Positions 23,478 through 61,600 are shown, counted from the first letter of the stretch. The stretch is 64,000 nucleotides of DNA from an uncultured Rivularia sp. (GCA_963665115.1 OY762007.1:448001-512000), one strand, 5' to 3'. Notes: generated by a model not told the origin, from the sequence alone. Program-made: numbers and translations.

Positions 23478-26400
23478 TTACTTACTTCGACAAACCTTTA
23501 ATCTTTCCCGTACTTGGGGATTGCTATTTAAATAATCTTTTAACCAGTCGCATCCGCGTGTTAATAACCCGTCTAAATGATCAATCTGCCAAATTAACAC
23601 CTCATTTCCTTGAGGTTGATTACCTTGAACGTGCGCGAGTATGTATTTACCATCTGGGCTGAATTTGGCTTCAGTTATGAAGGTAGATAAATACTTATAT
23701 TCTGCAAGCTGCTTACCTGAAGTATCCCAAATTTGAAATTTCTTGTCCTTTGAAGCTGTGAGGATACGCTTACCATCCGGGCTAAATTTAGCATAGACAA
23801 TCGGACTTTGATGAGGTATTTCAACTAATTGTTTGCCATTCGTATCCCAAATAATTGCCGTATTGTTTGTGGAAGTCGCAATAATTCGTTTTCCATCTGG
23901 ACTAAAACTAGGGCTAAAAATATCTTGATTTGCTTTAATTTCTGATAACTTTTTACCTGATGTATTCCAAATGGTTGCTATTCTTCCATTACTTGCAACA
24001 ATACGTTCCCCATCTGGGCTAAAGTTAGCACCGAGATAACTATATTCACTTGCTGGAAACTCTACTATTTTTTCACCTGAAATATTCCACAAACTAGAAT
24101 AATTTTTGCCATCATAATCAAACTTAGCAATAATATATTTACTATTTGGACTCCAAGTCATACCTCTAGCTTTGAATGTAGAGATTAACTTTCCCGTATC
24201 CGACCAAATTCTTGATTTACCATCGTAAGTTGTAGTTAAAATATGCTTGCCATCTGGACTAAAAGCAGCATAATCTAATCCCTTTTCATGTCCGGAAAGT
24301 AACAGTAATTGTTTTCCAGATGTATTCCAAACACGAGCAGTTTTATCAACTGATGCTGTAACTATTTTTTTGCCATCTGGACTAAAATTAGCGCTACTAA
24401 CTATACCTGAATGTCCTTGAAATCTTGCTAACTGCTTACCAAACTTATCCCAAAGTAATACAGATTTCCAAGTTGGGGTAACTACATATTTACCATCCGG
24501 ACTCCAACTTGCTCCATTAATTTTATCTTTTGAATTAATGTTTGCTGTAACTACTGGTATTTCATCAGATAAATTCCAAATACGAACGTTTCTATCAAAT
24601 CCATAAGTAACAATATGTTTACCATCAGGACTCCAACGGGGACTTCTTTGATCTCCTGCTAATTCAGCGATTAAATCGGCAGATAAATCCCATGCTTTTG
24701 CAGCACCATCTCTTATATCCCATACTTTTATAGTGTCGTCGGTGGTAAAAAATTGCTTCCCATCAGGGCTAAATTCTGCATTACTATTTAATTCTTTTTG
24801 ATTTTTTATTTCTCTAATTAACCTACCAGATAAATCCCAAACATAAGTTTTCTCAGATGTGGTTACAAAGATACGCTGACTGTCGGGGCTAAAACCAGCA
24901 TCCGCATTCCCTGAACGATCATCTACTTTAAATCTTGCAATTTGTTTACCTGAAATATCCCAAACATAGGAATCATCAGAGTTAGTTAAAATATATTTTC
25001 CATTTGGACTCCAATAAGCGCTGCTAACAGCTTTTGTATGTCCTGAAAGCGCTTTTACTAATTTACCCGAAGTATCCCAAATACGGGCAGTTTTATCATT
25101 AGAAGCAGTCAGAATATATTTGCTATCCGGGCTAAAACTAGCGCTATTAACTGTATCTTTAAGTTGTAGTAATAAATTACCCGATAAATCCCAGATACGA
25201 ACTATTTTTTCATCAGAGCCACTAACCACACTTTTTCCATTTACAATTGTTTCAGTTTGTGGTTGTTGAGAAATAGTAATTATACGTTTCCCATCTGGAC
25301 TAAAACTGGCACTATTTACCCATTCTTGATGTTTTATTATCGCTACTTGTTTTCCAGAAAAGTCCCATATCCGAACGTTTTTACCATAAGAAGCAGTAAT
25401 AATATGTCTACCATCAGGACTAAATTCAGCCTTATAAACTCCATCTTTATGTCCTTTCAGTTCGGTTATCAGCTTACCCGACAAATTCCAAATTCTAGCG
25501 GTTTTATCTGTGGAACCAGTAATCAAAAACTTTCCATCATGGCTCCAATTCACAGTTGTAATATTGTCTTGATGGGTTGCAAATTGTTTTACCTCACGAA
25601 TATTGTTTGTTATTGTTTGCAAAGCTAAAAGCGGACTGGTTGCAGGATATTTTTCTAAGGAACGTCCATCTTGTACTAAATTTTTCAATCTTTGTCCAGC
25701 ATCCATTGCTGTTACTAAAGATTCAATTTGTTTGGTTTCAAACTGTTTTAAAGCTGTAACTCCTGCTCTTTCTAATTTTGTACCTTCTTGAGCTTCTTGT
25801 AATTGATGATTTGCTCCTATAAAAGCAATCGTAGCTCCAATCACAGAACAAATTAGAACGCCACCACCAATACGAATTTGTCGTTTAGCTTTATGTTGAG
25901 CTGTAGTTAAAGTATCATTTGCTTGTGCTAAAATGCGACTTTCTTCTTCTTGAATAGCTAATGCGGTAGTTATTTCTTGTTTTTCCAATTCCTGACTAGC
26001 ATTTAAAAACTGATAATCTTGTTTACTTAAACTTTTATCCGCAGCCCAAATATTAGCGTCTTCTAATGCTTTTCCTCGCAATAATCTAGAATCATCTTGA
26101 AAATTTGAAGTAACCCAAGCTGATAATGCTTCCGAATATGGTCTTAAATTCATAAGTTCTTTTTCTACCCAATTTAAATCAAATACTGTTGCATAAATAC
26201 GGTTGTAAACCTGTAAATACCCTTGATTTTCTACAACTAATCCTGATAGCCGTAATTCAATTTGTTCTGGACTATCATCAGCGGGTATTTGTCCTAATTG
26301 TAAAATTTTCTGATACAAACCAAGCAATGCACCTGTATTATGCTTGCTCCTTAAAATCCGATCTTTAATAGTTTTTAAATGCGGTGGTTCGTCAAAAGAT

Positions 26401-27233
26401 TCCCAATTGTCAATTATTTTCTGTCTGACAATATTTTCTACATCTTGATTTTTTAATCCTGGAAAACCTGCTAATAAATCGCATAATTTCTGTGTTAATA
26501 ATGGTTGCCCCCCAGTCCAATCCAAAACTTCTTTTAAAACAGCTTGGGGATTTTCAACTTCTTTAAATCCTGCTGCTAAAGGTGAAACTTCATCTATTTG
26601 AAAACCATTAACTTGAATAGCGCTACCAATATTAAAAGGTGTTCTAACTTTATCGGCTATTAAATCGCTTGGTGTTGCTACTCCGAGAAGCACAAAAGTA
26701 ATCCGATTAAATTCTTTGTTAAAATTACGCTTTTCATAACAGCTTCTAATCCAAGAGAAAAAGTCATCGCAGGGGAAATTTAAGCTTAAAATACTATCAA
26801 TTTCATCAATAAAGATAACTATTTTACTTTGAATTTTTTCTAATAATATTTCTTCAATAAATATATCCAAACGCTGTAAAGGTGATAATTCGCTGTTTTC
26901 CTTCCACGATGTTCTAATAAACTCGCTGGGGTTAGCTATACCAAAATTAGCAACCAACGTATAAACAATTCCTGCATACCACTGTTCTGGATTGATATCT
27001 TTACTACCCCTTCCAGAAATATCAATTGTTGTACAAGCGATTCCTTCAGCTTGCAATCGTTTGATGGTGCGAACCTGTAAACTGGTTTTACCCATTTGTC
27101 GGGAATTGAAAATATAGCAAAAGTTGCCTGCTTTGAGTTCGTTGTAAAGGTCAAAATCTGCTTTTCTAACTACATAACTGGGAGCATTTTCCGAAAGACT
27201 TCCACCAACTTTGTAAGAAAAATTGTTGTTCAT
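23478..27233 (-). CDS. AAA_35 (STAND-like) NTPase with TM helix and WD40 beta-propellers
   Basis: YKVGGSL, Walker A NSRQMGKT, Walker B IFIDEID, TPFNIG, WTGGQP; TM IGGGVLICSVIGATIAFIGA; about 14-16 diverged FSPDG/IWD WD40 repeats. Confidence 0.92.
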   Translation of the reverse strand: MNNNFSYKVGGSLSENAPSYVVRKADFDLYNELKAGNFCYIFNSRQMGKTSLQVRTIKRLQAEGIACTTIDISGRGSKDINPEQWYAGIVYTLVANFGIANPSEFIRTSWKENSELSPLQRLDIFIEEILLEKIQSKIVIFIDEIDSILSLNFPCDDFFSWIRSCYEKRNFNKEFNRITFVLLGVATPSDLIADKVRTPFNIGSAIQVNGFQIDEVSPLAAGFKEVENPQAVLKEVLDWTGGQPLLTQKLCDLLAGFPGLKNQDVENIVRQKIIDNWESFDEPPHLKTIKDRILRSKHNTGALLGLYQKILQLGQIPADDSPEQIELRLSGLVVENQGYLQVYNRIYATVFDLNWVEKELMNLRPYSEALSAWVTSNFQDDSRLLRGKALEDANIWAADKSLSKQDYQFLNASQELEKQEITTALAIQEEESRILAQANDTLTTAQHKAKRQIRIGGGVLICSVIGATIAFIGANHQLQEAQEGTKLERAGVTALKQFETKQIESLVTAMDAGQRLKNLVQDGRSLEKYPATSPLLALQTITNNIREVKQFATHQDNITTVNWSHDGKFLITGSTDKTARIWNLSGKLITELKGHKDGVYKAEFSPDGRHIITASYGKNVRIWDFSGKQVAIIKHQEWVNSASFSPDGKRIITISQQPQTETIVNGKSVVSGSDEKIVRIWDLSGNLLLQLKDTVNSASFSPDSKYILTASNDKTARIWDTSGKLVKALSGHTKAVSSAYWSPNGKYILTNSDDSYVWDISGKQIARFKVDDRSGNADAGFSPDSQRIFVTTSEKTYVWDLSGRLIREIKNQKELNSNAEFSPDGKQFFTTDDTIKVWDIRDGAAKAWDLSADLIAELAGDQRSPRWSPDGKHIVTYGFDRNVRIWNLSDEIPVVTANINSKDKINGASWSPDGKYVVTPTWKSVLLWDKFGKQLARFQGHSGIVSSANFSPDGKKIVTASVDKTARVWNTSGKQLLLLSGHEKGLDYAAFSPDGKHILTTTYDGKSRIWSDTGKLISTFKARGMTWSPNSKYIIAKFDYDGKNYSSLWNISGEKIVEFPASEYSYLGANFSPDGERIVASNGRIATIWNTSGKKLSEIKANQDIFSPSFSPDGKRIIATSTNNTAIIWDTNGKQLVEIPHQSPIVYAKFSPDGKRILTASKDKKFQIWDTSGKQLAEYKYLSTFITEAKFSPDGKYILAHVQGNQPQGNEVLIWQIDHLDGLLTRGCDWLKDYLNSNPQVRERLKVCRSK

Positions 27234-27252
27234 GATGTGATATTTATTTTAA

Positions 27253-27307
27253 GTTTGTAGTAGGGACTTTAGTCCTCTCCGGAAGGGCTTAAGCCCCTAC
27301 TACGAAC
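27253..27307. repeat. REPIN-like GTAG paired palindrome
   Basis: GTTTGTAGTAGGGACTTTAGTCCT...AGGGCTTAAGCCCCTACTACGAAC; a related, more degenerate copy is at 2304-2358. Confidence 0.75.
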
Positions 27308-27309
27308 AA

Positions 27310-28191
27310 TTAGATTCTATTTTTACTAATCAAAGCTTCTAATTGCTTCAACCTATCGTCAATTAATACTATTTCTGGATGAACTGGACTATACCTTTTT
27401 GAAAGTTGCGATTTTTGGACTTTCAAATCTTCCATTTTTCGATAAGCAGCATTATTTATTAGGCTTTTAACTGTGCCTTTATATGGCTGCGGTTGCGTAT
27501 TTTCAAATTGTTTATATAAATCCTCAAGTTTAACTTCAAAATCTTGAATCATTGGATGTTGAGGTGATAATCTTGCTGAATTTATTGCTTTTTCTACTTC
27601 TATTTTGGCGATTGATTTTAAAATATCGGCAGTGGTAAGATTAGGCTCTGAAAGCGATACCCCTAATTGTGATAATTCTGTCCTAACTTCAGCGAACTTT
27701 TCTTTACTAATTCCTTCCATATGACCATTTCCAAAAACCCCATTTAACTCTTGCTGCAATATTTTATCTGCTGCTTTATAATCTTTAATAGCGTTTTCTT
27801 TATCTCCTAAATCTCGATACAGATTAGCTCGACGAATATAAGCTTCAGTATTAACCAAATCATTATCATCAATGTATTTATTCAAATTTAAAATTGCTTT
27901 TCGTTTTTCACCAGATTTTTCATAAGCCATAGCTTTTTCATCGTATTTCCTCCGCTCTTGGCTCAACACAGCTTTTTGATGTTGGTTGAGTATGTAACCA
28001 AAGCACCTTTTTGGAACTCCTGCTATCTTCAAGATGTTCTCTGCTGAATCAAAAGTTTTTGGATTTACGATTTTACATTCATGGTAATCATCGGGAACTG
28101 AAATCTGTCCAAGTAAAGGTATAGAAAAACCTAGAAATAAAATAGATGATGTATGAGCAATTATAGAAGTTATAGAGAATGGAAATTTCAT
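27310..28191 (-). CDS. Secreted TPR protein with two (Y/L)SPxHP helical-hairpin repeats
   Basis: Signal-peptide-like N-terminus MKFPFSITSIIAHTSSILFLGFSIPLLG; TPR AYIRRANLYRDLGDKENAIKDY; LSPQHP and YSPVHP motifs. Confidence 0.75.
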   Translation of the reverse strand: MKFPFSITSIIAHTSSILFLGFSIPLLGQISVPDDYHECKIVNPKTFDSAENILKIAGVPKRCFGYILNQHQKAVLSQERRKYDEKAMAYEKSGEKRKAILNLNKYIDDNDLVNTEAYIRRANLYRDLGDKENAIKDYKAADKILQQELNGVFGNGHMEGISKEKFAEVRTELSQLGVSLSEPNLTTADILKSIAKIEVEKAINSARLSPQHPMIQDFEVKLEDLYKQFENTQPQPYKGTVKSLINNAAYRKMEDLKVQKSQLSKRYSPVHPEIVLIDDRLKQLEALISKNRI

Positions 28192-28254
28192 TATTATTTA
28201 ATCGATAGCTATTTTATTTACGATTAGGATTAGCGTTTGTAGGTTCCACTAAAA

Positions 28255-29272
28255 CTACATCCGATTACGGCTAATTAATGCTTTTAATTGCTCTATTTGA
28301 TTAGTAATGAAAATTCTTTCGGGATGCGTTGCAGTAAACTTTTTTGTAAGTTGCGATCGCATTACTTTCAAACGTTGGATTTTTATATGAGCAGCAGCCA
28401 CTATTATGCCTTTTTCTATTTCTTCATCTGGCTGTACTTGTGTATTTTCAAGTTGTTTATGCAAGTCCTGAAGCTGAGCGTCAAAATGCTGAATTAATGG
28501 GTTTTGAGGTTTGAATTTTGCTAAATTTAATGCTCGTTCGACTTCTATTTCAGCAATTGATTTTAAAATCTTAGCAGTGGCAAGATCCGGTTCTGGAACT
28601 GATACCCCTAGTTGTGATAATTCAGTTCTAACTTTATCCATCATTTCTTGATACATGGGATCTATACCACTAATCGCAAAAAGCATATTGAAATCTTCCC
28701 GCAAGATTTTATCTGCTACTTTGTAATCTTGAATAGCATTATTTTTATCTCCCAAATCCCGATACAGATTAGCTCTGTAAATATAAGTCTCAGCTCCAGC
28801 CTTAGCAGAGGAAACCACTATCACGAATGTATTTAGTCAAATCTGAAATTGCTTTTTGTTTTTTACCTAATTTTTCATAAGCCCTAGCCCTGTTCAAATA
28901 TGCAGCGTCACTCGAATCCAATCTACCTGTATTTATATTAATTACTTCGGTATAATCCTTAATTGCGGCTTTGTAATTCCCAATTTGAAAGTAAGCATTT
29001 GCACGTTGATAGTAGGGAGCTTCTACTTCAGGATTCAGTTTAATTGCTTGGGTGTAAGAAGAAATTGCAGCTTGTGAGTCTTTTTCGCACCCCATTTGAA
29101 ACAATCCCATTCTTATGAAGTCATCTACTGTATTAAGTTGTGGTGGCTTAGGAATTTTGCATTCATCAGGATTATTAGAAGCTAGGATTGGTGTAACTAA
29201 TGGTAGAGCAATTAGCAGCAAAATAGATGATGTATGAGCAATTATAGAAGTTATAGAGAATGGAAATTTCAT
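28255..29272 (-). pseudogene. Secreted TPR protein, paralog of 27310-28191, split by a 1-bp frameshift at about 28812
   Basis: Same first 18 residues as the paralog; removing one base joins DSG to SSAKAGAETYIYRANLYRDLG; C-terminal half aligns with the paralog. Confidence 0.8.
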
Positions 29273-29436
29273 AATTAAGTAATTTAGAATAATTTTCAGT
29301 AAAATTAGATCGGTAGTGCGACCATCTTGGTCGCTAGTAATACTCCACTAATCTCATTTAACCCCAACGATATCTGAGTTGACATGGGAGTATATCGAGT
29401 TCGTATCGACTTTGTGACGAGATTGAAAATAACGCA

Positions 29437-29525
29437 AACCTAACCCCCAACTCCTTCCCTACGAGGGAAGGGGAGTAACAATTAAAGCCTCTCTCCTACA
29501 AGGAGAGAGGTTTGGAGAGAGGTCA
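29437..29525. repeat. Dispersed palindromic repeat (AACCTAACCCCC...CCTCTCTCC type)
   Basis: Hairpins CCTTCCCT-ACG-AGGGAAGG and CCTCTCTCCT-ACA-AGGAGAGAGG; reverse complement matches 59663-59740. Confidence 0.8.
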
Positions 29526-29530
29526 AAAAT

Positions 29531-30805
29531 ATGCCACGCTCAGTTCAAGTACGTTCTGAATTTATCTCTAAGGTAAAGTCTGCTCTACCCCGTAATGGTT
29601 ATATTCGTCAAACTGATTTAGCTGAATATTTGCAAATTTCTCAATCTACTATCAGCAGTTTTCTCAACGGTAAACCTGTTGATTATTTGAATTTTAGAGA
29701 AATTTGTCGGGCTTTAAGTTTGGAATGGCAAGATATCGCGGATTTAATGCTAGAAACTTCACCTGTAATTTCAAATCCAGAAATATCGAGTTCCAACTCT
29801 TTAGAACATCCATCTGGATTAGTGCCGTTAGATTCGCCATTTTATGTTGGGCGATCGCCAATTGAAGAACGATGTTACCAACAAATCAACCAACCCGGTA
29901 CTTTAATTAGAATAAAAGCTCCCAGACAGATGGGGAAAAGCTCGCTTCTAGCAAGAATTATTGATAAATCGCAATCTCAAAAAGATCGTACTGTAACTTT
30001 AGATTTTCAACTGGCAGCGCAGCAGATTTTTGTTAATTCAGATAAATTTCTACGTTGGTTTTGTGCCAGCATCGGTTTAGCTTTAAATATTCCTAATAAA
30101 ATTAACGAATATTGGGATTTAGCTGAAATTGTTGGTAGCAGCATGGCTTGTAAAGCTTATTTTGAAGAGTATTTATTACCAACTATCGATAATCCGCTAA
30201 CTCTTGGTTTGGATGAGGTTGATAAAGTTTTTGAATATCCAGAAATTTATCGAGATTTTTTTGGGTTGCTGCGGGCTTTACATGAAGAAGGTAAACGACG
30301 TGAAATTTGGAAAAGGCTGCGATTAATAATTGTACATTCTACAGAGGTTTACGTTCCCCTCGATATTAATCAATCACCATTTAATGTTGGTTTATCGATA
30401 GAATTACCCGAATTTAATAGCAATCAAATTTTAGATTTAGCACAAAGACATCAACTTGATTGGAATAATACCGAAGTTGAAAAAATCATCAATTTAGTCG
30501 GTGGACATCCGTTTTTAATTCGTCTTACTCTGTATCATATAGCTAGTGGAAATATTACCTTAAATCAAATATTAGAAAATGTAACTAATCCCAAAAGCAT
30601 TTACGCAGAACATTTACGCCGCCAAAGTTTAATTCTGACGCAACAACCGGAATTAGCAGCGGCTATGAAAGATATAGTTAATAACAACAATACTGAACTA
30701 TCAACTGTTACTAAATTTAAGTTACAAAGTATGGGATTGGTTAAATTGCAGGGAGATAGTGTATTTCCAAGGTGTAATTTATATCGTCAGTTTTTACGAA
30801 TTTAG
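29531..30805 (+). CDS. XRE-type HTH fused to an AAA_35 NTPase
   Basis: QTDLAEYLQISQSTISSFLNGKPV HTH; Walker A KAPRQMGKS; Walker B LGLDEVD; SPFNVG; GGHP; KLQSMGLV winged-helix-like tail. Confidence 0.9.
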   Translation: MPRSVQVRSEFISKVKSALPRNGYIRQTDLAEYLQISQSTISSFLNGKPVDYLNFREICRALSLEWQDIADLMLETSPVISNPEISSSNSLEHPSGLVPLDSPFYVGRSPIEERCYQQINQPGTLIRIKAPRQMGKSSLLARIIDKSQSQKDRTVTLDFQLAAQQIFVNSDKFLRWFCASIGLALNIPNKINEYWDLAEIVGSSMACKAYFEEYLLPTIDNPLTLGLDEVDKVFEYPEIYRDFFGLLRALHEEGKRREIWKRLRLIIVHSTEVYVPLDINQSPFNVGLSIELPEFNSNQILDLAQRHQLDWNNTEVEKIINLVGGHPFLIRLTLYHIASGNITLNQILENVTNPKSIYAEHLRRQSLILTQQPELAAAMKDIVNNNNTELSTVTKFKLQSMGLVKLQGDSVFPRCNLYRQFLRI

Positions 30806-31198
30806 TTTTACTTTTAATTCACACTGTTGAAAAATATAATTTACTGCTGCAAACAACTTATCTAAATCATTATATCTTTATCAAACTAGTTGGCACACCT
30901 GCCGGTTAAGTGGACTATTTCAATTGGTGGGTTACGTCTGTTTTATGCCGTTTGACCAAATTATCGGTACCTTCTTGAAATACTGGGAGATACACTCAGA
31001 TCCTGTATCAGTATTAATTACGCAACTTCCAAGACTGCATACCCTCCACACCACACAGATATATAAAAAATTAGGAAAGCGAAATTTCCAAAACTGAATA
31101 ACCTCGAAACACCCAAACCTATAAATAAATAGAACACAACACCAACGTGCATTTACTATCCCGATAATTCATTAACGATTACAACAAGAGGAACGCAA

Positions 31199-31741
31199 AT
31201 GAAAGGTTTACAAGCAGCATTCGCACTAGTTTTCAGCTTCATAATAATTAGTCCCAGAGTAAACGCTCAAACGCCCGATACTAACGTCAAACCACAAATT
31301 GAGAAATTGCAAGTTGCATCAACCCCAAATCAGAATTTGACACCAAACCGGAAAGCACTCTCTTATTTAAAACAGGGACACACTTTTTTGAAAAATAGAA
31401 ACTATCCCGAAGCAGTAAAGGCTTTTGATCAAGTAATCAAAATTCAACCAAACAATCAATATGCTTACCAAGGTAAAGGAGCTACTTACCTTCGCACGGG
31501 ACAATTTAAACAGGCAAAAACCGATTTAGATAAATCGATTCAACTAGATAATTCACTCTCTTATGCTCACTATTACCGGGGATTAGTTAATATTGCATTA
31601 GGTAATAAAGATAATGCAAATACAGATTTTGAAACAGCAGCGAATCTATTTGAGAAAGAGGGAAACACAAAATTAGCTAAATTAAGTCGTGAGTTCAAAA
31701 AGCATTACTCAGAATATTTACGCCGTCAGAGTTTAATTTGA
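31199..31741 (+). CDS. Secreted TPR protein whose 3' end runs into a duplicated AAA_35 tail
   Basis: Signal peptide MKGLQAAFALVFSFIIISPRVNA; three TPRs; RBS GAGGA; final residues YSEYLRRQSLI come from the AAA_35 repeat. Confidence 0.8.
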   Translation: MKGLQAAFALVFSFIIISPRVNAQTPDTNVKPQIEKLQVASTPNQNLTPNRKALSYLKQGHTFLKNRNYPEAVKAFDQVIKIQPNNQYAYQGKGATYLRTGQFKQAKTDLDKSIQLDNSLSYAHYYRGLVNIALGNKDNANTDFETAANLFEKEGNTKLAKLSREFKKHYSEYLRRQSLI

Positions 31742-31909
31742 TCGCAACAACCGGAATTAGCTGAGGCTATGAAAAATATTGTTAATAACAGCAATCCGAC
31801 GTTATCAACAGTCATTAAATTTAAATTACAAAGTATGGAATTAGTTAAATTGCAAGGAGATAATGTATTTCCAAGTTGTAATTTATATCGTCGGTTTTTG
31901 AGGATTTGA
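31696..31909 (+). pseudogene. Degenerate copy of the last ~70 codons of the HTH-AAA_35 gene
   Basis: Direct repeat of 30592-30805 encoding YSEYLRRQSLI*SQQPELAEAMKNIVNN...KFKLQSMELVKLQGDNVFPSCNLYRRFLRI*. Confidence 0.85.
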
Positions 31910-34403: not shown

Positions 34404-36672
34404 ATGAAAAAGTTGGCATTGCTGATTGGGGTAAGCGAATATGAGTACGACTTGAATCCCCTACCAGGTGCCCTTAAGGATGTTGATGCAATCCAACGTG
34501 TTTTACAACATCCAGATATGGGTGATTTTTCCCCAAATAATATCAAACTATTGAAAAATCCGCAGATACCAAATATGGGAATGGAAATTGAGAAAATTTT
34601 CTCTAATTGCCAGAAGCATGATTTGGTGTTGCTATATTTTTCCGGGCATGGGATTAAAGATGATAATGGCAATCTTTATTTAGCGAGCAGTCAAACTTGC
34701 AAGCATCCTAACGGGCAATTGATTACTTCAAGCACTGTCGCTGCAAGTTTTATACACAATATCATGGATAAAAGCCCTTCTCGGAGGCAAGTAATTATTC
34801 TTGATTGCTGCTTCAGCGGTGCTTTTGCTCGCGGTATGACGGTAAAAAATGATGGTGATGTAGATATTAAAAATCAATTGGGAGGGGAAGGAAGGGCAGT
34901 TTTAACTTCTTCTACTTCTACTCAATATTCTTTTGAGGAACAGGCATCCAATCACTCAATTTATACGCGCTACCTTGTCGAAGGAATTGAAAATGGTAAA
35001 GCCGATTTGGATGGTGATGGTGTAATTTCAGTTGATGAACTGCATGAATATACTCGCACTAGAATGCAAGAAGTTGCACCCAAAAGTAAACCTGAGATTT
35101 ATGCTTTCAAGGAAGGTTATAAGATTCAGTTGGCAAAAGTATGTCTAACTCAACAGCTAATTCCGATTGCTAAAAATCAAATAGGTTTCGGTGAATTAAA
35201 GTTGGGAAGAATGCTGCAAGAGGAAAGCGCTGAAGATGAATTGCAAGTTGATTATCTACCTAATTTTTTAGAACCGTTTGATTTTTTGATTAAAACTTTA
35301 ATTACCAAACTCACTGAAAACTTTTTTACTAACGATCGAGCAAATAATTTATCTATTGATTCTGAATTTGAAATTCAAATATTAGAAATTATCCGAGAAG
35401 CTTCTGAAGCCGATTTTGTATTTATACTCGAAAATGATAGTCAGGATAACTGTTTTGTTAAATCACAAAGTAATTTAGCAGAAAATATTGAGAAGAATGG
35501 CTATATTAATATACTAAACACAATAATTTTTCCAATTATCTCTCATGAATCAGTTTTTAATCCCTCGCATCACGGCACTTATAAAATTCATGAATATGCT
35601 AAAGGTTCTGCCAATGCTTTTGTGATGATACCGTTAAAAATGCCTCCGAATGCTGAAATTATGGTAATTTGCGGTGTGCCTCGAAATTCGCATTTATTAG
35701 GAAATGCCTACGGTAGGATTTTATCTAGTTTTTATCAAAGCAGTCAAACATTTTTACAACCTGCATTAGTAGAAGCCGCTATTATTGATTCTTTAAAAAA
35801 GGATTTTAAATTTGTATCTGAATCGTTATACGAAAGACGTTTTCAACTATTTTGCGAACGGTTGCAGAAAATGGTTGTTTATTTTGAACCCTTAATTTGC
35901 ATAGATGCCAATGAATTTTTTATCAGTGGTTGGGAAGCTTTAGCTAGAGATCCTGAAAGTTTAACTGCTCCCGTCGATCTATTTCAAGCCGCAGAATTAT
36001 GGGGTTCTCGATTCAAAGTTGAGTTAGACCAATATTTTCTGAAAGTTGCAGCAAAAAGCTATAAAGAAGCTAGGAAGTTAAAACAAAGAAGACTGAGTGA
36101 TGTTGTACCATTGTCAGTTAATGTATATCCGGAATCATTAGTTAGAACGGAATATTTTGAAACTGTTAGAGAAATTTTGGCAGAAGATATTATTTCACCA
36201 CGAAATTTGGTCTTAGAAATTTCTGAAAAATCAGAATTACCAGAGTTTGACGATAGTATTCGATTAGATAATCCTTTAGCTTTTTTCAAAAATAAACTTT
36301 TAGAATACGTACATCAATTTAATATTCGATTTGCTATCGATGATTTTGGAGTTGGTTATTCTTCAGTTTCTCGACTAGCTGGTTTGAACCCATGTCATGT
36401 TAAAATTGACCGCGAAATCCTGCATCATCAATCTAGCGATCTAATTATTCGTTTCGTTCATCAAATTGTTAAAGATAATAATTTATATCCACCGAATGTA
36501 ATAGTTGAGGGTGTAGATGAAGAAACTCCGATTAGTTTATATCAATTAAAAAAAATAGGTGTAACTTATATTCAAGGGCATATTGTTGGTAAACCAGAGT
36601 CAGAAGTTTATCGTCTCAGCCAGGAAAAATATATAGAAACTCAAGAAAATGATTTCAGGTGAGATTGTTTAA
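34404..36672 (+). CDS. Caspase-like (peptidase C14) - GAF-like - EAL fusion protein
   Basis: KLALLIGV, YFSGHG, ILDCCFSG (His/Cys dyad); EAL motifs WEALARD, SVNV, LEISE, AIDDFGVGYS, KIDR, VEGVD, IQG. ORF as given stops at 36662; removing one A at about 36638 would give IELKKMISGEIV* at 36672. Confidence 0.88.
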
Positions 36673-36745
36673 GGGAAAATCTTTAATTTTCGGAGTTATT
36701 GCTCTTATAATTGTTTATGTAAGTATAATCTCGCAATAGGGCTGT

Positions 36746-37126
36746 ATGATTACTGACTTGACTGACGTGAAGCTGACTATTTCTTTTGTAGATCCAGATT
36801 TAGACGAGGAAGAAAAAGAAGCAGAGGTAATTAAGCTGCTTGCACAAATGAAGAATTTAGATGAAGTTGAAGAAGTTGGGCGGGTTGCCGAAGCGAGTGT
36901 ACCTCAAAACAGCAAGTCAATATCGGGTTATATCGCTGGAAAAGTTTGGACTTTCGTGAAATCTCAGAATATTAAACAAGTATGGGGATTTTTGAGCGAG
37001 CGTCTTGGTAATAAAGTTATTGAAGTAGAAGCAGAAGCTAATGGTAAGAAAATTAAGGTAAAAGCTAAAAATTCCCAAGAGTTACAAGAAGCAGTTAAAG
37101 CAGTGCAGGAATTTATTAAAAGTTAA
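36746..37126 (+). CDS. EACC1-like (effector-associated constant component) small protein
   Basis: DPDLDEEEKEAEVIKLLAQM...PQNSKS...FLSERLGNKVIEVEAEANGKKIKVKAKNSQEL pattern, recalled as the partner of cyanobacterial caspases; adjacent and co-oriented with the caspase gene. Confidence 0.72.
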   Translation: MITDLTDVKLTISFVDPDLDEEEKEAEVIKLLAQMKNLDEVEEVGRVAEASVPQNSKSISGYIAGKVWTFVKSQNIKQVWGFLSERLGNKVIEVEAEANGKKIKVKAKNSQELQEAVKAVQEFIKS

Positions 37127-50635: not shown

Positions 50636-53600
50636 GTGACTTACAATACCTCTATCAAAACCATTTTAATTCTCGCCGCTAATCCCAAAACTACCTCCCG
50701 ATTGCGCTTGGATGAAGAAATACGAGAAATTGATGACGGGTTGAAGAATAGCGAACATTTTAGGTTGGTAACTAAATTGGCTGTGCGTCAGCGTGATTTT
50801 TACAGGGCAATTCTAGAATATCAGCCGCAAATTATTCACTTTTGCGGGCATGGTGAGGGAGATGATGGAATTGTTTTAGAAGATGATATTGGACAATCTG
50901 TGACTATGGGAAACTGAAGCCCTATCTCGATTGTTTAAATTATTTGCTGTCAAAGGAGTTGAATGTGTTGTTCTTAATGCTTGCTACTCGGAGGTGCAAA
51001 CCTTAGCTATTAGCCAATACATAAAATATGTGGTTGGCATGAATACAGCTATTGGGGATAAAGCTGCAATTAATTTTGCTGTCGCTTTTTACGATGCATT
51101 AGGAGCAGGGGAAGATGTGCAGTTTGCTTATGATTTGGGCTGTAGTCAACTTGTTGGATTAAATGAAGATAGTACTCCAGTTCTCAAAATTACGGAAATA
51201 CATCCTGCTGATATTCAATTTGTCGCTGGTGATATTCCTCCCAATCCATATTTAGGATTATCTGCTTTTGCAGAAAAAGATGCGGCTTTCTTTTTTGGCA
51301 GGGAGAAGTTTACGGATGAGTTATTTGATATGGTTCATCAGCAAAACTTAGTAGCAGTAATTGGTGCTAGCGGTAGTGGAAAATCTTCGGTGGTGTTTGC
51401 AGGTTTAATTCCCAAACTGCGAGAAGAAGGAACTTGGTTGATAGAATCATTTCGTCCCAAAAGTCAACCCTTTGATGAACTAGCTTTGGCTTTGGTAAGC
51501 CAATTAGAACCCAATATTGATGGTGTAGATAAAACTATTAAAGTTGGTAAATTAGCAGAAAGTTTAAACAAAGGGGAAGTCAAATTACATCAAGTTGCAT
51601 CACAAATTTTAGAAAATCAACCACAAAAACGCTTTCTATTAATCGTAGACCAATTTGAAGAACTTTATACTCAATCTCAAGATAAAGAACAGCAACAAAG
51701 CTTTATTGATACATTACTTTTAGCTGTTAATCAAAAAAGTATCACATTAGTTTTTACATTACGTGCTGACTTCTACGGTTATGTGCTTTCTTACCGTCCA
51801 TTTAGCGATGCATTAGGGCAAATTACTTTTAAACCGTTGGGGTTAATGAATCGCGATGAATTACTTACAGCTATTGAACAACCTGCCCAAAAGTTAGGGG
51901 TAAAATTACAAACCCATTTGGCAGAAAGAATACTTGATGATGTTGGTCAAGAGCCAGGAAATTTACCATTATTAGAATTTGCTTTAACTCAATTATGGGA
52001 CAAGCAAAAGAATAATCAATTAACTCACCAAGCTTACGATGAAATTGGTGGTGTCAAACAAGCTTTAGTTAAACATACAGAAGAAGTTTATCACAAATTA
52101 AGTGAAGCACAAAAGCAGCAAGCACAGCGTATTTTTCTTTCTTTAGTAAGGTTGGGAGAAACAACAGAAGATACCCGACGTGTAGCGACTCGTGAAGAAA
52201 TTGGCAAGCAAAATTCGGATTTAGTCAGGTATTTAGCAGGTTCACAAACCCGGTTATTAGTGACAGGAAGGAAAGATAAATCGGGAGAAGAAACAGTAGA
52301 AGTTGTTCATGAAGCGCTGATACGAGAGTGGGGAACTTTGCGTAAATGGGTAGATGAAAATCGGGAGAAATTGATACAGAAGCGTAAGATTGAAGCGGCA
52401 GCAATTGAGTGGCGAGATAAAAATAAATTAAAAGGTTATTTGTTGACAGGGAGACAATTAAAAGATGCTCAAGCATTTCAGAAACAGCAGAATATTAATT
52501 TAGGATTATCAGATTTGGCTAGTGAATTTATTAAAACAAGCAACAAGCAACAGCGAGTTAGGTTGCTTCAAACATCTAGTATTTTAATAATTCCGATTTT
52601 AATTGCGGCAGGAATTATAGTTCCATATCAACGACAGCAAAGTTATAACCAAGCCTGGGAAATTATCAGAAGTCGTAAACAAGGAACTCGTGCAGCACTA
52701 GAGTTACTCACTGAAGGCTGTTGGGCAAAAGATATTCCTATTTTCAGTTTGTTTTTTGGTGAATGTCATAACTTTGTTGGTACTGACCTCAGTCGTGCCA
52801 ACTTCAATAATGCCAACCTCAATAATGCCTACCTCTGGAGTGCCAACCTCAGTCGTGCCGAACTCTGGGGTGCCAACCTAGAACGTGCCAACCTTAATAA
52901 TGCCAACCTAGAAGGTGCCAACTTCAATGATGCCAACCTCAAAAATTCCTACCTCAGTAATGCCAACCTAGAAGGTGCCAACCTCAAAAATGCCAACCTC
53001 AAAAATGCCTACCTCTGGGATACCGAACTCAATAATGCCGAACTTAATAACGCCAACCTAGAAGGTGCCGAACTCAATAATGCCAAACTCAGTAATGCCA
53101 ACCTAGAAGGTGCCAACCTCAAAAATACCTACCTCAGTGGTGCCGAACTCTGGGGTGCCAATCTAGAACGTGCCAAGCTCTGGGATGCCAATCTACAACG
53201 TGCCAACCTACAACGTGCCAACCTCAAAAATGCCAACCTCAAAAATGCCAACCTCAAAAATGCCAACCTCAAAAATGCCAACCTCAAAAATGCCTACCTC
53301 AGTAATGCCAACCTCATTGATGCCGATCTCAGTCATGCCAACCTCATTGATGCCTACCTCAGTCATGCCAACCTCATTCGTGCCGACCTCAGAAATGCCA
53401 ATCTCATTAATGCCGACCTCATTGATACCGATTTCATTGATGCCGATCTCAGTGATGCTGACCTCAGTGATGCTGACCTCTTTATTGCTAACCTCACTGG
53501 TGCCTACCTTGTTGGAGCCAATCTCGCTAGTGCTAACCTCATTGGTGCCAACCTCAGTGGTGCAATATTCTGGGATAAAACTTCGGGTGAAGCCAAAAAC

Positions 53601-53696
53601 ATAACCCCAGAACAAATCAAAGAAGCCAAAAACTGGGAGAAAGGAATATATAGCCCAGAATTTCGCAAAAAATTAGGTTTACCACCAGAGAAATAA
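50636..53696 (+). CDS. CHAT protease - nSTAND1-type NTPase - TM - pentapeptide repeat protein (apparent frameshift at about 50910)
   Basis: ILILAANP, IHFCGHG, VLNACYS (CHAT His/Cys); NPYLGL, FFGRE, GASGSGKSS, IVDQFEE, LPLLEFAL, HEAL; TM ILIIPILIAAGIIV; about 50 A(N/D)L pentapeptides. Confidence 0.88.
52790..53565 (+). repeat. Pentapeptide-repeat coding array with 15-bp periodicity
   Basis: GCCAACCTC core every 15 bp; exact (AAAAATGCCAACCTC)x4 at 53226-53285. Confidence 0.92.
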
Positions 53697-56493: not shown

Positions 56494-58557
56494 ATGAATC
56501 AGTATTCTTTAATTGGAAAAAAACTGCGCGATCGCTACCAAATTCTCGAAAAGATAGGAGAGGGGGGATTTGGAGATACTTATCGAGCGATTGATTTCGA
56601 TTTACCAGGGGAGCCGGTATGTGTCGCTAAACATTTTAAGCCCAAGAATCCCCATCCTGCGGTATTAGAAATTGCGAAGGATAAGTTTAACCAAGAGGCA
56701 CAAACTTTATATCGGTTGGGTAATGCTAACAAGCAAATCCCCAGTTTATTTGCTCATTTTGAAGAAAATGGGCAATTTTATTTGGTTCAGGAATTTGTTG
56801 ATGGGTATGACTTAACGAAAGAAGTTCTTTCAGGTAATCCCAAAAAAGAGCAAGAGGTATTGCAACTTTTAAAGGAAATTTTGGAGGTGTTGGCGTTTGT
56901 ACATCAGCAAAACGTTATCCACCGGGATATTAAACCGCAGAATATTATGCGCCGCAAAGATGGCAAGATAGTCTTGATTGATTTTGGGGCTGTTAAGGAA
57001 ATTGCTGGTTTAGGTGTCAATCCCCAAGAAATTTCTCAAACTGTTGCAATCGGAACTCCCGGTTATATGCCTCGCGAACAACAATCTGGTTATCCCAATT
57101 TCAGCAGCGATATCTATGCAGTAGGAATTATTGGTTTTCAGGCTTTAACTGGTTTATATAGAAATCCGCTAGAGCTACCGCAAGATTATCATACCAAAGA
57201 GTTGTATTGTGCTTTGTTCCCATGCGAGGTTAGCCCAGCTTTTGCGGAGATATTAGACAAAATGGTGCGTTATGACAATCTTCAGCGTTACAAAAATGCT
57301 GCTGTTGCCCTAGAAGCCGTAAATAATTTACTAAATTTAGAACAGACAACAACGGTAGTTGTACCGTCACCAAACTTAAACACAACTGTACAGGAAAATC
57401 GAAATTATATAAGAAGCAATACTTCCATTCAAACAGAACCTTCTTTGTTTCAGAAAATTATCGGATTTTTCCGGGATTTATTGAGCGATGAACCGGAATT
57501 TCCACCAACTGTTGTCTCCAATCCTACTGTTAATAGTAATAGTTATGAGCAACCGGAAGGACAAGTAAGCCTTGATTCTGCTTTTTATATCGCACGCCCA
57601 CCGATTGAAAATGACTGTTATGAAACGATTTTACAACCGGGGGCGTTGATTCGCATCAAAGCACCGCGTCAAATGGGGAAAACTTCTCTGTTGTCGCGGA
57701 CTTTGGATTATGCCAAAAAGCAAGGTTGCCAAGCTGCATATTTAAATTTGCAATCCGCTGATGCAGAGTTTCTCGATAGCTTAGATAAATTCTTGCAGTG
57801 GTTTTGCGGTAGCATTGCCCAAGAGCTTACCTTGAAGGATAAATTAGCCGAACATTGGCAGGGTGTGCTGGGTAGTAAAAATAAGTGTACGAATTACTTT
57901 CAAAGATATTTGCTATCAGAAATTAAAAGCCCGGTGGTTTTGGGCTTGGATGAAGTAGACCAAATTTTTCAGCATCCGCAAGTAGCAGCAGAATTTTTCG
58001 GTTTGTTGCGAGCTTGGCACGAAAAGTCCAAGAATCAAGCAACTTGGCAAAAATTAAGATTGGCGATCGCCCATTCCAAGGAAGTTTACATCCCCTTAAA
58101 TATCAATCAGTCGCCGTTTAATGTCGGCTTACCTATTGAGTTACCGGAGTTTAACCAGTCGCAGGTTAAGGATTTAGTACAAAGATATCATTTGGATTGG
58201 GGAGAGGAAGAAATTAAGCAACTGATGGCAATGGTAGGTGGACATCCTTATTTAGTGCGGAAGTCGTTGTATGAAATTGCCCGCGACAGAATTAGCTTGT
58301 CACAGTTTTTACAGATTGCGCCCACGGAACAAGGAATGTTTAGCGACCATTTGCGCCGTCATTTGTCGAATTTAAGGGAGGATGACGGGTTAGTATCAGC
58401 GATGAAATAAGTAATTACCGAAAACAATCCCGTAAGGTTAGATACGAATTCGGGCTTTAAATTACGCAGTATGGGCTTGGTGAGGTTTCAAGGAAATGAT
58501 GTCATACCTTTGTGCGATTTGTATCGTTTGTATTTCCAGGAGCATTTAAAAGGCTGA
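56494..58557 (+). pseudogene. Ser/Thr kinase fused to an AAA_35 NTPase, with premature TAA at 58408
   Basis: GEGGFG, HRDIKPQN, DFG; KAPRQMGKT, LGLDEVD, SPFNVG, GGHP; the frame continues past TAA as VITENNPVRLDTNSGFKLRSMGLVRFQGNDVIPLCDLYRLYFQEHLKG*. Confidence 0.88.
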
Positions 58558-58692: not shown

Positions 58693-61600
58693 ATGAGTCA
58701 AACAAGTTTACCTTCATACCAATATCAAGTAGGGGGAAGTCTACCAACTAACGCTCTTACCTATGTGAAAAGAAAGGCTGATGATGAATTATATCAAGCT
58801 TTGAAAAATGGTGAGTTCTGCTATGTGTTGAACTCCCGACAAATGGGAAAATCAAGTTTGCGGGTGCAAACTATGCAACGTTTGCAGGATGAAGGTTTTG
58901 CCTGTGTGGCGATTGATATTACAAATATTGGTACGGCGGATATTACTTTAGAACAATGGTATGCGGGAATAATTGATAGTGTTATTAATAGTTTGGAGCT
59001 TTACGATAACTTTGATTTAAATGATTGGTGGATGCAGCAAGGTTTGCTGTCTCCGGTGAATAAGTTAAGTAAGTTTTTTGAATCGGTTTTATTAAAATTA
59101 ATTTCACAGAAGATTGTAATTTTTATCGATGAAATTGATAGTGTTTTAAGTTTAAATTTCCCCGTTGATGATTTTTTCGCTTTGATTCGGGAATGTTATA
59201 ACAGTCGCGCTTCTCAACCAGATTATCAACGGTTGACTTTTGCTTTGTTGGGGGTGACGACTCCCAGCGATTTAATTCAAGATAAGCGCCGCACCCCGTT
59301 TAATATTGGTAGAGCGATTGAATTGACTGGTTTTGAGTTGGCAGAAGCGGAACCATTAGCGCAAGGTTTAGCGAAGAAAACTAGTCAGGCGATCGCCGTG
59401 ATGGATGCGGTATTGTATTGGACTGGGGGACAACCTTTTCTCACCCAAAAGCTGTGTAAGTTGATTTTGAATCATCATGGTGTGATTCCGGAGGATGGAA
59501 TTAACGAATGGGTAGGGCATTTGGTGCAATCTGGGGTAATTGATAACTGGGAAGCACAAGATGAACCGGAGCATTTAAGGACGATTCGGGACAGGATTTT
59601 ACGGGGTGGTGGACAATTGACGGTAAGGTTATTGGCGATATATAAAGAAGTACTTGAAGGGGAAAACCTCTCTCCTACAAGCACAGAGGCTTTAGATGTT
59701 CCCCCTTCCCTTGCAGGGAAGGGGGTTAGGGGGTTAGGTCAGAGTGTGCGAACTGCCGATACACCCGAACAAGTGTATTTACGGTTGTCGGGATTGGTGG
59801 TAGAGCAGCAGGGGAATCTCAGAGTTTATAACCACATTTATGAATCGATTTTTAATTTAAATTGGGTCGATCAAGAATTAAAAAACCTCCGTCCCGATTT
59901 TTATGCTACAGCTTTCGAGGCTTGGGTTGAGTCCGATTATGAAGATAATTCGCATTTATTGCGGGGACAACAACTTGGTGATGCTTTAGCATGGGCGGAA
60001 GGAAGAAGTTTAAGCAATCAAGATTATCGGTTTATTACAGCCAGTCAAAAATGGGAATTTGAGCAAGCACAGCAAGCAACAACACAGGCACTCAAAGAAG
60101 CGGAGGAAGCACGGGAAGCGACGAAGTTAGAAAGATTGGGAAATTTAGCCTTGCGGCAGTTTGAATACAACCCAACACCACAGGTAGTAGCAACAGCTAT
60201 GGAAGCCGGAACAAGGCTAAAAGCACTAGTAAAAGATGGACGACCTTTAGAAAAATACCCCACCACTAGTCCTGTGTTGGCTTTAAATACTGTTCTTGAT
60301 ATCCCCAAACGTAAAACGCTCAGAGGGCATGAGGGTGGAGTTATCCATGCCGACTTTAGCCCCAGCGGACAGCGGATTGTGACTTTCTTAGCATTTGTGT
60401 TAGGTAAAACTAAAGATGATACCGCTTTTAGCTCTAACAGACAGCGGATTGTCACTGCATCTGCGGACGGAACAGCAAAAGTGTGGGACATCAATGGTCA
60501 ACTGCTGCAAACACTCAAGGGGCATCAAGGTTCTGTCAGATATGCCGCCTTTAGCCCCGACGGCAAGCGGATTGTCACTGCATCTGCGGACGGAACAGCA
60601 AAAGTGTGGGACATCAATGGTCAACTGCTGCAAACACTAAAGGGGCATCAGAGTTCGGTCGGAAATGCTGCCTTTAGCCCCGACGGCAAGCGGATTGTGA
60701 CCGCATCTAGGGACAAAACAGCGAAAGTGTGGAACATTAACGGTCAACTGCTGCAAACATTCAAGGGGCATCAGAGTTCGGTCAAACATACCGCCTTTAA
60801 TTGGGTTCATGCCGCCTTTAGCCCTGACGGACAGCGGATTGTCACTGCATCTATGGACGGAACAGCGAAGGTGTGGAACATCAACGGTAAACTATTGCAA
60901 ACCCTCAAGGGACATCAGGATTTTGTCTCCCATGCTGTTTTTAGTCCCGATGGACAACGGATTATCACTTCATCTGCGGACGGAACAGCGAAGGTGTGGA
61001 ACATCAACGGTAAACTATTGCAAACCCTCAAGGGGGGGCATCAGAGTTGGGTTTATGCCGCCTTTAGCCCCGACGGCAAACGTATTATCACTGCATCCAG
61101 TGATAAAACAGCAAAGGTGTGGGACATCAATGGTCAACTGCTGCAAACCCTCAGTGGGCATCAACGTTCTGTCCACGATGCGGCTTTTAGCCCCGACGGA
61201 CATAGGATTGTGACTGCATCTGCGGACGGAACAGCAAAAGTGTGGGACATTAATGGTCAACTATTGCAAACACTCAGTGGACATCAAGATGAAGTCAAAT
61301 ATGCCGCCTTTAGTCCCGATGGCAAGCAGATTGTGACTGCATCTACGGACGGAACAGCAAAAGTGTGGGAAATCAACAGTGAACTGCTGCCAACCCTTAA
61401 TGGGCATCAGAGTTGGGTCAATCATGCCGCCTTTAGCTCCGACGGCAAGCGGATTGTTACTGCATCAAGTGATAATACAGCAAAGGTGTGGGACATCAAC
61501 GGTCAACTGTTACAAACCCTCAACGGGCATCAGTCTGGGATCAGATATGCCGCCTTTAGCCCCGATGGACAGCGGATTCTCACTGCATCAGATGATAAAA

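Follow-up and report, generated by a model that had tools for sequence, protein, structure and literature searches.

A candidate split transmembrane signalling pair of AAA_35 NTPases, with a putative phased operator, in a Rivularia genome

Why should two paralogous NTPases, one apparently anchored in the membrane and the other carrying a DNA-binding domain, be encoded back to back across a shared intergenic region? The question is raised by positions 23478-31909 of a 64,000-nucleotide stretch from the 8.69 Mb genome of an uncultured Rivularia sp. (GCA_963665115.1 OY762007.1:448001-512000; the whole stretch is referred to below as the window and supplies all coordinates given without a locus handle). 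The genes at this locus are real and their order is as a first-pass annotation of the DNA had described it: with domains assigned by Pfam, a minus-strand run of tetratricopeptide repeat (TPR) genes and a gene for an AAA_35-transmembrane (TM)-WD40 protein is divergent from a gene for a helix-turn-helix (HTH)-AAA_35 protein. The answer towards which we lean slightly is that the two NTPases form a split transmembrane signalling pair, an outside-facing receptor and an HTH-bearing partner that would switch the TPR-receptor operon by way of an array of phased repeats in the intergenic DNA. The paired STAND module itself is real and widespread, has a candidate operator at this locus and is, apparently, undescribed.

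Two NTPase subtypes and their pairing

The receptor gene (minus strand, 23478-27233) encodes P0001, a predicted membrane receptor of 1251 amino acids (aa) in which a STAND-like AAA_35 NTPase is followed by a coiled linker, a TM segment and a double WD40 propeller. Its divergent neighbour (plus strand, 29531-30805) encodes P0005, a predicted transcription regulator of 424 aa that combines an Xre-type HTH with AAA_35 and is without a TM segment. Both proteins pass the gathering cut-off of Pfam AAA_35 (PF14516; 27 bits), P0001 with 97.5 bits and P0005 with 477.6. In P0001 the NTPase module covers residues 11-351 (26181-27203, minus strand) and contains Walker A (NSRQMGKT), Walker B (IFIDEID), a conserved Arg and a GQP motif; P0005 has HTH_3 at residues 25-65 and AAA_35 at residues 94-423. 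The motifs quoted in the first-pass annotation, NSRQMGK/IFIDEID for the receptor and APRQMGK/LGLDEVD for the HTH protein, are both found in the translated proteins, and its view that they belong to two different subtypes holds: what we call type A (the NSRQMGK subtype) and type B (the APRQMGK subtype) are distinct paralogous families, 19% identical, with an HH probability of 99.9.

Do these proteins belong among the STAND NTPases? Their P-loop core has GK[ST] and hhhhDE in both types, with the first Gly of Walker A replaced by Asn or Ala. PMC2323615 names as a STAND hallmark a motif that is conserved in the N-terminal helix and also at strand 4; in a comparison made without the exact Leipe consensus, an N-terminal motif, Y-x-x-R-x-x-[DE], is kept at 97-98% and strand 4 ends in GVAT (A) or HST (B). 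The GxP of the STAND C-terminal helical bundle is present as GQP or GHP (G 100%, P 98-100%). A structure model of B (predicted local distance difference test score, pLDDT, 91.7) is consistent with the STAND helical bundle and winged helix, judging by its helices, its terminal strands and a full-length fold match to STAND structures. The closest folds are the archaeal ATPases 2qen (Z 21.1, root-mean-square deviation (rmsd) 4.1, 309 residues aligned) and 2fna (Z 20.0, rmsd 4.1, 306 aligned); the next structure has Z 17.0, and weaker matches include NLRs, MalT (8bob, Z 15.6) and ORC. A sequence search of the PDB with the A profile returned spurious RecA P-loop matches only.

Walker A Lys, one Arg and GxP are kept by both types, whereas the Walker B Glu is present in 88/88 A but 58/78 B proteins; P0005 itself has intact Walker motifs (GKS, DEVD). 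Of 93 A proteins, 68 have a TM segment behind the NTPase; such a segment occurs in 3 of 69 B proteins, whose extra domain is mostly N-terminal and drawn from HTH types, kinase, CHAT and TIR, with GGDEF found too. The two types divide the labour between them: A is usually NTPase-TM-sensor, B is soluble with an output domain. Type A modules also terminate giant kinase-AAA_16-GAF(-PAS) proteins, which usually end in a histidine kinase (L137:2511-8207, L146:3799-10050, L147:14379-20000). Another protein, P0124, joins type A AAA_35 to a HetR-like part (Peptidase_S48 plus HetR_C), which may connect the module with heterocyst-type regulation.

The first-pass annotation had proposed a neighbourhood survey for obligate pairing of the two subtypes. 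Pairing turns out to be strong, yet at the level of the single locus it is not obligate. The source genome has 10 A loci (12 open reading frames (ORFs), two genes being split) and 10 B genes, with a B gene within 5 kb of 8 of the 10 A loci. Among the best 80 of 608 A loci found in GTDB, 67 have B in the surrounding DNA, 47 as tandem B>A (often abutting), 18 divergent, one convergent and one A>B; no B was seen at the other 13, several of them cut by contig ends. Across the phylum, 87 of the 251 genomes sampled have A, with at most eight candidates scored per genome. A renewed search for B, in 80 of the 107 genomes listed out of these 251 (the 144 unlisted ones being A-negative), recovered B in 60/60 A-positive genomes as against 3/20 A-negative ones. 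Some small genomes have one gene of each type, unlinked. At the other extreme, A and B are fused in one chain, in both orders, in 8 of the 150 best representatives at 50% identity and in one further protein (G022). The partners of adjacent pairs diverge together: for 49 non-redundant pairs out of 87, rho is 0.56 and nearest neighbours agree in 31/49 cases against 3 expected. Fourteen control genomes were negative, and the survey as a whole was made within the cyanobacteria.

Two variations on this theme deserve mention. At L146:12337-15027, a type A AAA_35, a nucleotide cyclase and a type B AAA_35 are combined in one chain. At L139 and L140, one B gene precedes two to four A-TM(-WD40) paralogues in tandem, beside an ethylene-receptor-like gene, an arrangement in which one output may be served by several receptors.

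Receptor topology and the phased repeat array

On which side of the membrane do the propellers lie? P0001, whose orthologues are 78-96% identical, has 16 WD-type motifs and one hydrophobic stretch, residues 455-473 (25815-25871, minus strand), predicted from hydropathy only as a single TM helix (Kyte-Doolittle 2.11). Basic residues lie towards the NTPase, with four K/R before the helix and one after. To judge from relatives, the slot behind the helix is probably extracytoplasmic. Pfam domains of 39 TM-bearing, non-WD40, single-A representatives include known extracytoplasmic ones in 12 cases: seven peptidoglycan-binding (one of these proteins has a second hydrophobic stretch), three CHASE2, one PBP and one 7TMR-HDED. 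The peptidoglycan-binding, CHASE2 and PBP domains require the periplasm for that slot. Uninformative domains make up a further share (six GUN4, five CHAT, five TPR), and outside domains are found in 0/13 TM-less A proteins, which have GAF, HATPase, kinase, cyclase, HetR, GUN4, TPR or WD40 instead. WD40-bearing A proteins have a TM segment in 44 of 52 cases; K/R are higher on the NTPase side in 34 of these 44 and lower in 4. A C-terminal Cys pair, considered as a possible marker of an oxidising compartment, is matched by regular expression in 33/44 TM-bearing and 1/7 TM-less proteins, several TM-less tails retaining cysteines when inspected by eye. The first-pass annotation had placed WD40 outside the cytoplasm, and the relatives' post-TM domains and the positive-inside bias support it: outward-facing propellers are a strong prediction.

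The window contains a second pair, in which B is a Ser/Thr kinase-B protein (56494-58410, plus strand) with a premature stop about 47 codons short of the family end; its A-WD40 partner (58693-62523, plus strand) has no TM helix.

The first-pass annotation had also pointed to the divergent intergenic DNA as the place for a regulatory site, and a candidate operator has come to light there. In 12 orthologous intergenic regions, a single common block is found between variable flanks; here it is a phased array of direct repeats at 29371-29423 (plus strand; consensus approximately YATYGASTT), with units near 29371, 29392, 29403 and 29414 and spacings of 21, 11 and 11 bp. This 11-bp phased array is a new element of the present analysis. 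Short palindromic repeats have entered the intergenic DNA at 27253-27307, 29305-29335 and 29440-29525, where relatives carry different ones.

If the array were the operator of the HTH-AAA_35 protein, it should follow that class of HTH. We trained a matrix on the 12 orthologous regions and applied it to held-out B genes. Of the 20 held-out B genes with an Xre-type HTH resembling that of P0005, 12 have the array upstream at a score of at least 15, always in one strand orientation, versus 5/79 other B genes; at a score of at least 12 the figures are 15/20 and 9/79. Shuffled sequences gave 0-1/20 matches, and out-of-phase unit spacings 3, 2 and 0 of 21. All 15 positive held-out Xre-B genes are at divergent loci, and the five that score lower are tandem, without a partner or separated from A by 7.7 kb. 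In a genome scan with 2.4% of the genome masked (heptamer tandem repeats had swamped the unmasked scan), the array at the studied locus, itself a training site, is the sole clear match (31.5; next 24.0). We predict with moderate confidence, given this tracking of the HTH class, that HTH-bearing B is what binds the array.

The array also keeps company with the genes to its left. It is present in 18/18 TPR cassettes with the promoter in view versus 0/9 orphan TPR loci. Three TPR-A operons without an adjacent B retain it, their genomes encoding a B relative (65-82%) elsewhere, and a displaced TPR copy has an array of its own. At L188, which repeats a locus already counted, the array remained beside A after a GNAT toxin-antitoxin piece had been inserted; at L189, which has the same kind of insertion, it is not upstream of B. 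At L192 it lies between Xre-B and an A protein with a CHASE2-like TM pattern, and L191 has a repeat-like match only. These rearrangements suggest that the array mostly follows the TPR/receptor promoter. About 10 bp to its left lies a conserved TTTAAC (29357-29362, no strand assigned), a possible core-promoter element of the leftward TPR/receptor transcript; it fits the sigma-70 consensus poorly, and a sigma-70 promoter scan found fewer sites than in shuffles. Weak phased-repeat matches also occur upstream of B genes with a non-Xre N-terminal domain (L094, L080, L132; L028, L029, L106), and these may represent a second operator type.

Cargo, mechanism and alternatives

The operon under the array begins with two TPR genes, which the first-pass annotation had described as paralogues with signal peptides. 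Both are found, their signal peptides judged by hydropathy and eye only, but the first, TPR1 (28255-29272, minus strand), is here broken by a single additional base near 28812 into a pair of ORFs (28802-29272 and 28255-28824) that overlap in different frames. In four sequencing runs of one study, contigs of X1, X2 and X4 are without this base and those of X3 have it; relatives' genes are intact (333-339 aa), and the frameshift looks like a recent strain-level lesion. A structure model of TPR1 (pLDDT 83.7) has TPR repeats and helical hairpins and matches generic TPR solenoids only; the likeness of the hairpins to chain-length-determinant motifs is weak (E 2.6e-4, far below the cut-off). TPR2 (27310-28191, minus strand; 293 aa) is a shortened TPR1 paralogue with two C-terminal helical hairpins. 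A third signal-peptide TPR protein, TPR3 (31199-31741, plus strand; 180 aa), had been counted as a component of the system. Present in only one of nine orthologous loci, it is a passenger outside the conserved unit. It is flanked by the 3'-terminal 212 nt of the HTH-AAA_35 gene and a second copy of them, 83% identical, at 30592-30803 and 31696-31907 (plus strand), of which the latter is a decayed duplicate with an internal stop that supplies the last codons of TPR3. The end coordinate of the locus as originally delimited, 23478-31909, is that of this duplicated remnant.

Are TPR1 and TPR2 co-receptors, as had been suggested? Members of the TPR family are encoded in 56 of 301 family genomes (matched over their full length in about 33), and among the best 30 TPR loci 21 lie within a cassette and nine are orphans without an A/B pair. 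Among 18 divergent A/B loci, three have this TPR, seven of one Microcoleus-like lineage have other membrane genes (NfeD, Band 7 and pilin-like, in the two loci scanned) and the rest have none or unrelated genes. We regard the space between A and B as a cargo slot because most divergent loci carry other genes there or none, and we reject an obligate co-receptor role for the TPRs. They are best read as regulated output, with positive feedback on the receptor, and possibly as propeller binders too. In the Microcoleus loci (L117:6582-9981 and relatives), NfeD, Band 7 and three pilin G/H-like genes occupy the slot under the same array; a crude signal-peptide test mislabelled these membrane-anchored genes, and a GNAT fragment at L058, as secreted. 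By eye, the cassette or its B also occurs beside clusters for peptide export or clusters resembling those of ribosomally synthesised and post-translationally modified peptides (C39-type ABC transporter, short precursor-like ORFs) at L044:1-5881, L051 and L190:12698-14000.

How might these parts work together? Imagine a cue that reaches the outside propellers and opens the NTPase module of A. The opened module would recruit soluble B into a mixed oligomer, in which B, now multivalent, would bind the phased units, which lie immediately upstream of the leftward promoter, and raise expression of the TPR genes and the receptor. A direct A-B hetero-oligomer we hold with moderate confidence; activation rather than repression of the operon is suggested weakly to moderately. 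Across the family, A would be analogous to the transmitter, and B to the receiver, of a two-component system.

A number of observations weigh against this scheme. Eight of the 20 held-out Xre-B genes miss a score of 15, the held-out positives amount to about seven lineages in which kin are not independent, and about seven of the 18 array-bearing cassette loci are training loci or their equivalents. The apparent regulon is the cassette alone, with no wider regulon in the masked genome scan. L193 is without the array, and L047 retains B and array though TPR and A have been lost, which fits plain autoregulation. Both co-occurrence and co-divergence would be expected in any case because operon co-duplication would yield them. 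Propellers can function without a TM segment, since 7 of 52 WD40-bearing A proteins have none, the second A protein of the window included. Domains typical of conflict systems (TIR, CHAT, trypsin, EAD) are found in many B proteins, and Hat, a probable homologue to which we return below, is reported to reside in thylakoids.

The conflict-type domains suggest one alternative, a paired NLR-like counter-invader system in which a protein of a phage, predator or competitor would be detected by A at the envelope and B would act as executor, a transcriptional one at this locus, with the secreted TPRs as neutralising proteins. The mechanics would be those of the signalling pair, but the role immune instead of physiological. 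B-type fusions to TIR, CHAT, trypsin, kinase and EAD4 would fit, as would the many paralogues per genome, their patchy presence and frequent breaks, and the EAD1-FGE gene that fills the slot in L047; moreover, PMC8195603 places Npun2340/2341-family NTPases among counter-invader FGS systems and predicts a counter-invader role for nSTAND2 pairs. Even so we consider it unlikely. This cassette is without a toxic effector, its flanking genes are housekeeping ones, small genomes hold single conserved copies, and ordinary signalling parts are present in both partners (CHASE2, PBP and GAF/PAS in A; GGDEF in B). No match for either NTPase module or for the TPRs, anti-phage STAND systems such as Avs and bNACHT included, was found in PADLOC-DB 2.0 (2023), a library older than the newer families.

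Slightly less probable still is that no signal passes from A to B at all. B would then be a self-contained local regulator, an autorepressor for example, A and the TPRs an envelope scaffold, and the pairing a product of co-duplication. L047, with its B and array, speaks for such independence, as do the intact Walker motifs of P0005, the unlinked A and B genes of some genomes and the fact that Xre-type HTHs are often repressors. Fusions in both orders argue against it, as do presence and copy number that match even without linkage. The catalytic Glu is lost in 20/78 B proteins while the Arg is kept, as expected for a partner-dependent subunit, and the modular swapping of B outputs and A sensors also argues for the signalling pair.

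Least probable of the three, a version in which the pair does signal but with propellers in the thylakoid lumen, or with the hydrophobic stretch as mere anchor and an internal cue such as carbon status, as suggested for Hat, can draw on TM-less WD40 variants, on the control of high-affinity inorganic carbon uptake by Hat (PMC4057619) and on G177 and G139, in which a 1191-aa A-type gene immediately precedes a V4R-ferredoxin-phycobiliprotein-like-TPR(320 aa)-kinase run, but sits poorly with the periplasmic domains in the relatives' post-TM slot, with the signal-like N-termini of the co-transcribed TPRs and with an identity of only about 36% between P0001 and the G177 protein.

Beyond the locus, the window holds a Caspase-EAL fusion with a small ORF of 126 aa behind it, an arrangement conserved in the genus (34404-37126, plus strand), a dihydrolipoamide-dehydrogenase-like gene split across two frames here and whole in L046 (38169-39600), and a third STAND gene, for an nSTAND1-pentapeptide-repeat protein (50931-53696, plus strand).

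Relation to known systems

AAA_35 is probably the Npun2340/2341 family, a cyanobacterial STAND family of the MNS clade that is called after two consecutive locus tags and is named in section 7 of PMC8195603. The fold of the AAA_35 model is closest to the archaeal ATPases PabY2304 and SSO1545, STAND types of the MNS clade, and the matches to 2qen and 2fna agree with the affinity of that clade to archaeal MJ/PH/SSO-type ATPases. In the literature searched, Leipe 2004 aside, we found no text that describes for this family a mechanism, an operator or the pairing of a membrane receptor with a DNA-binding partner. Literature searches more generally returned no account of the pair, its topology or its operator; they leave aside Leipe 2004, Hisbergues 2001, the PMC8195603 source data and the PMC12803255 clade tables, and the latter two may list these proteins. 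Further literature consulted comprises PMC7159879, PMC12803255, PMC5587647, PMC11119718, PMC6113231 and PMC2491639.

Two STAND paralogues in a pair are also the mark of nSTAND2, an operon whose products are predicted to form a hetero-multimer and whose eroded partner has a variable output (PMC8195603, section 15). The outputs given there are GT4 or HEPN, and the passages describe no membrane sensor or DNA-binding output. B is eroded only in part (20/78 without the Glu), and P0005, intact in GKS and DEVD, carries an HTH in place of GT4 or HEPN. It matches AAA_35, HTH_3 and HTH_26 only (for P0001, 25 of 44 families are listed), and we reject membership of nSTAND2.

The first-pass annotation knew of no characterised example, and no account of the pair has been found, but one probable A-type protein does have a genetic phenotype. 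The run from V4R through TPR(320 aa) to kinase, which the 1191-aa A-type gene precedes in two genomes, has the gene order published for slr0144-slr0151 (PMC4853703), so that slr0143 is probably A-type. We take slr0143 to be Hat of Synechocystis, which on this reasoning is probably an AAA_35-TM-WD40 protein, sharing with P0001 the Walker motifs and the TM position. Hat has a regulatory phenotype in inorganic carbon uptake (PMC4057619); it is about 36% identical to P0001, its B partner is unlinked, and the passages available mention neither an NTPase nor a partner. Should the pair work as proposed, it would supply a mechanism for this old, unexplained phenotype in Synechocystis, which has one A and one B gene. 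We entertain, with less conviction than for the locus itself, that AAA_35 A/B pairs represent a third kind of modular transmembrane signalling, undescribed and spread across the cyanobacteria, with Hat as a receptor and the unlinked B as its partner. A membrane STAND receptor with swappable WD40, CHASE2, peptidoglycan-binding or PBP sensors would nucleate a hetero-oligomer, its soluble paralogue would swap HTH, GGDEF, cyclase, kinase, TIR or caspase outputs. Oligomers of the Xre-HTH branch would read 11-bp phased operators.

STAND proteins are known as cytoplasmic one-chain switches. In MalT and the AfsR/SARP-STANDs, nucleotide-dependent oligomerisation drives binding to repeated, phased DNA boxes, and a single cytoplasmic chain holds sensor, NTPase and HTH. 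Here, by contrast, sensor and HTH belong to two paralogues on opposite sides of a predicted membrane, the HTH being of Xre type and placed at the N-terminus. If a transmembrane hetero-oligomer holds, it would be categorically new, and the candidate operator offers a direct handle on the model.

The logic of sensor-transmitter and receiver-output, encoded by adjacent or head-to-head genes, recalls two-component systems and paired sensor-helper NLRs, and with two-component systems the likeness extends to sensor (CHASE2, GAF, PAS, PBP) and output domains (HTH, GGDEF, cyclase). The five locus proteins have no HisKA/HATPase or receiver domain, which means that the cassette may work in the manner of a two-component system without being one, and coupling would instead run through co-oligomerisation of NTPases at a membrane-anchored receptor. 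If true, a split STAND pair that spans the membrane and has exchangeable sensors and outputs, occurring in 87/251 of the cyanobacterial genomes sampled with up to about ten copies per genome, would constitute a signalling class beside two-component systems.

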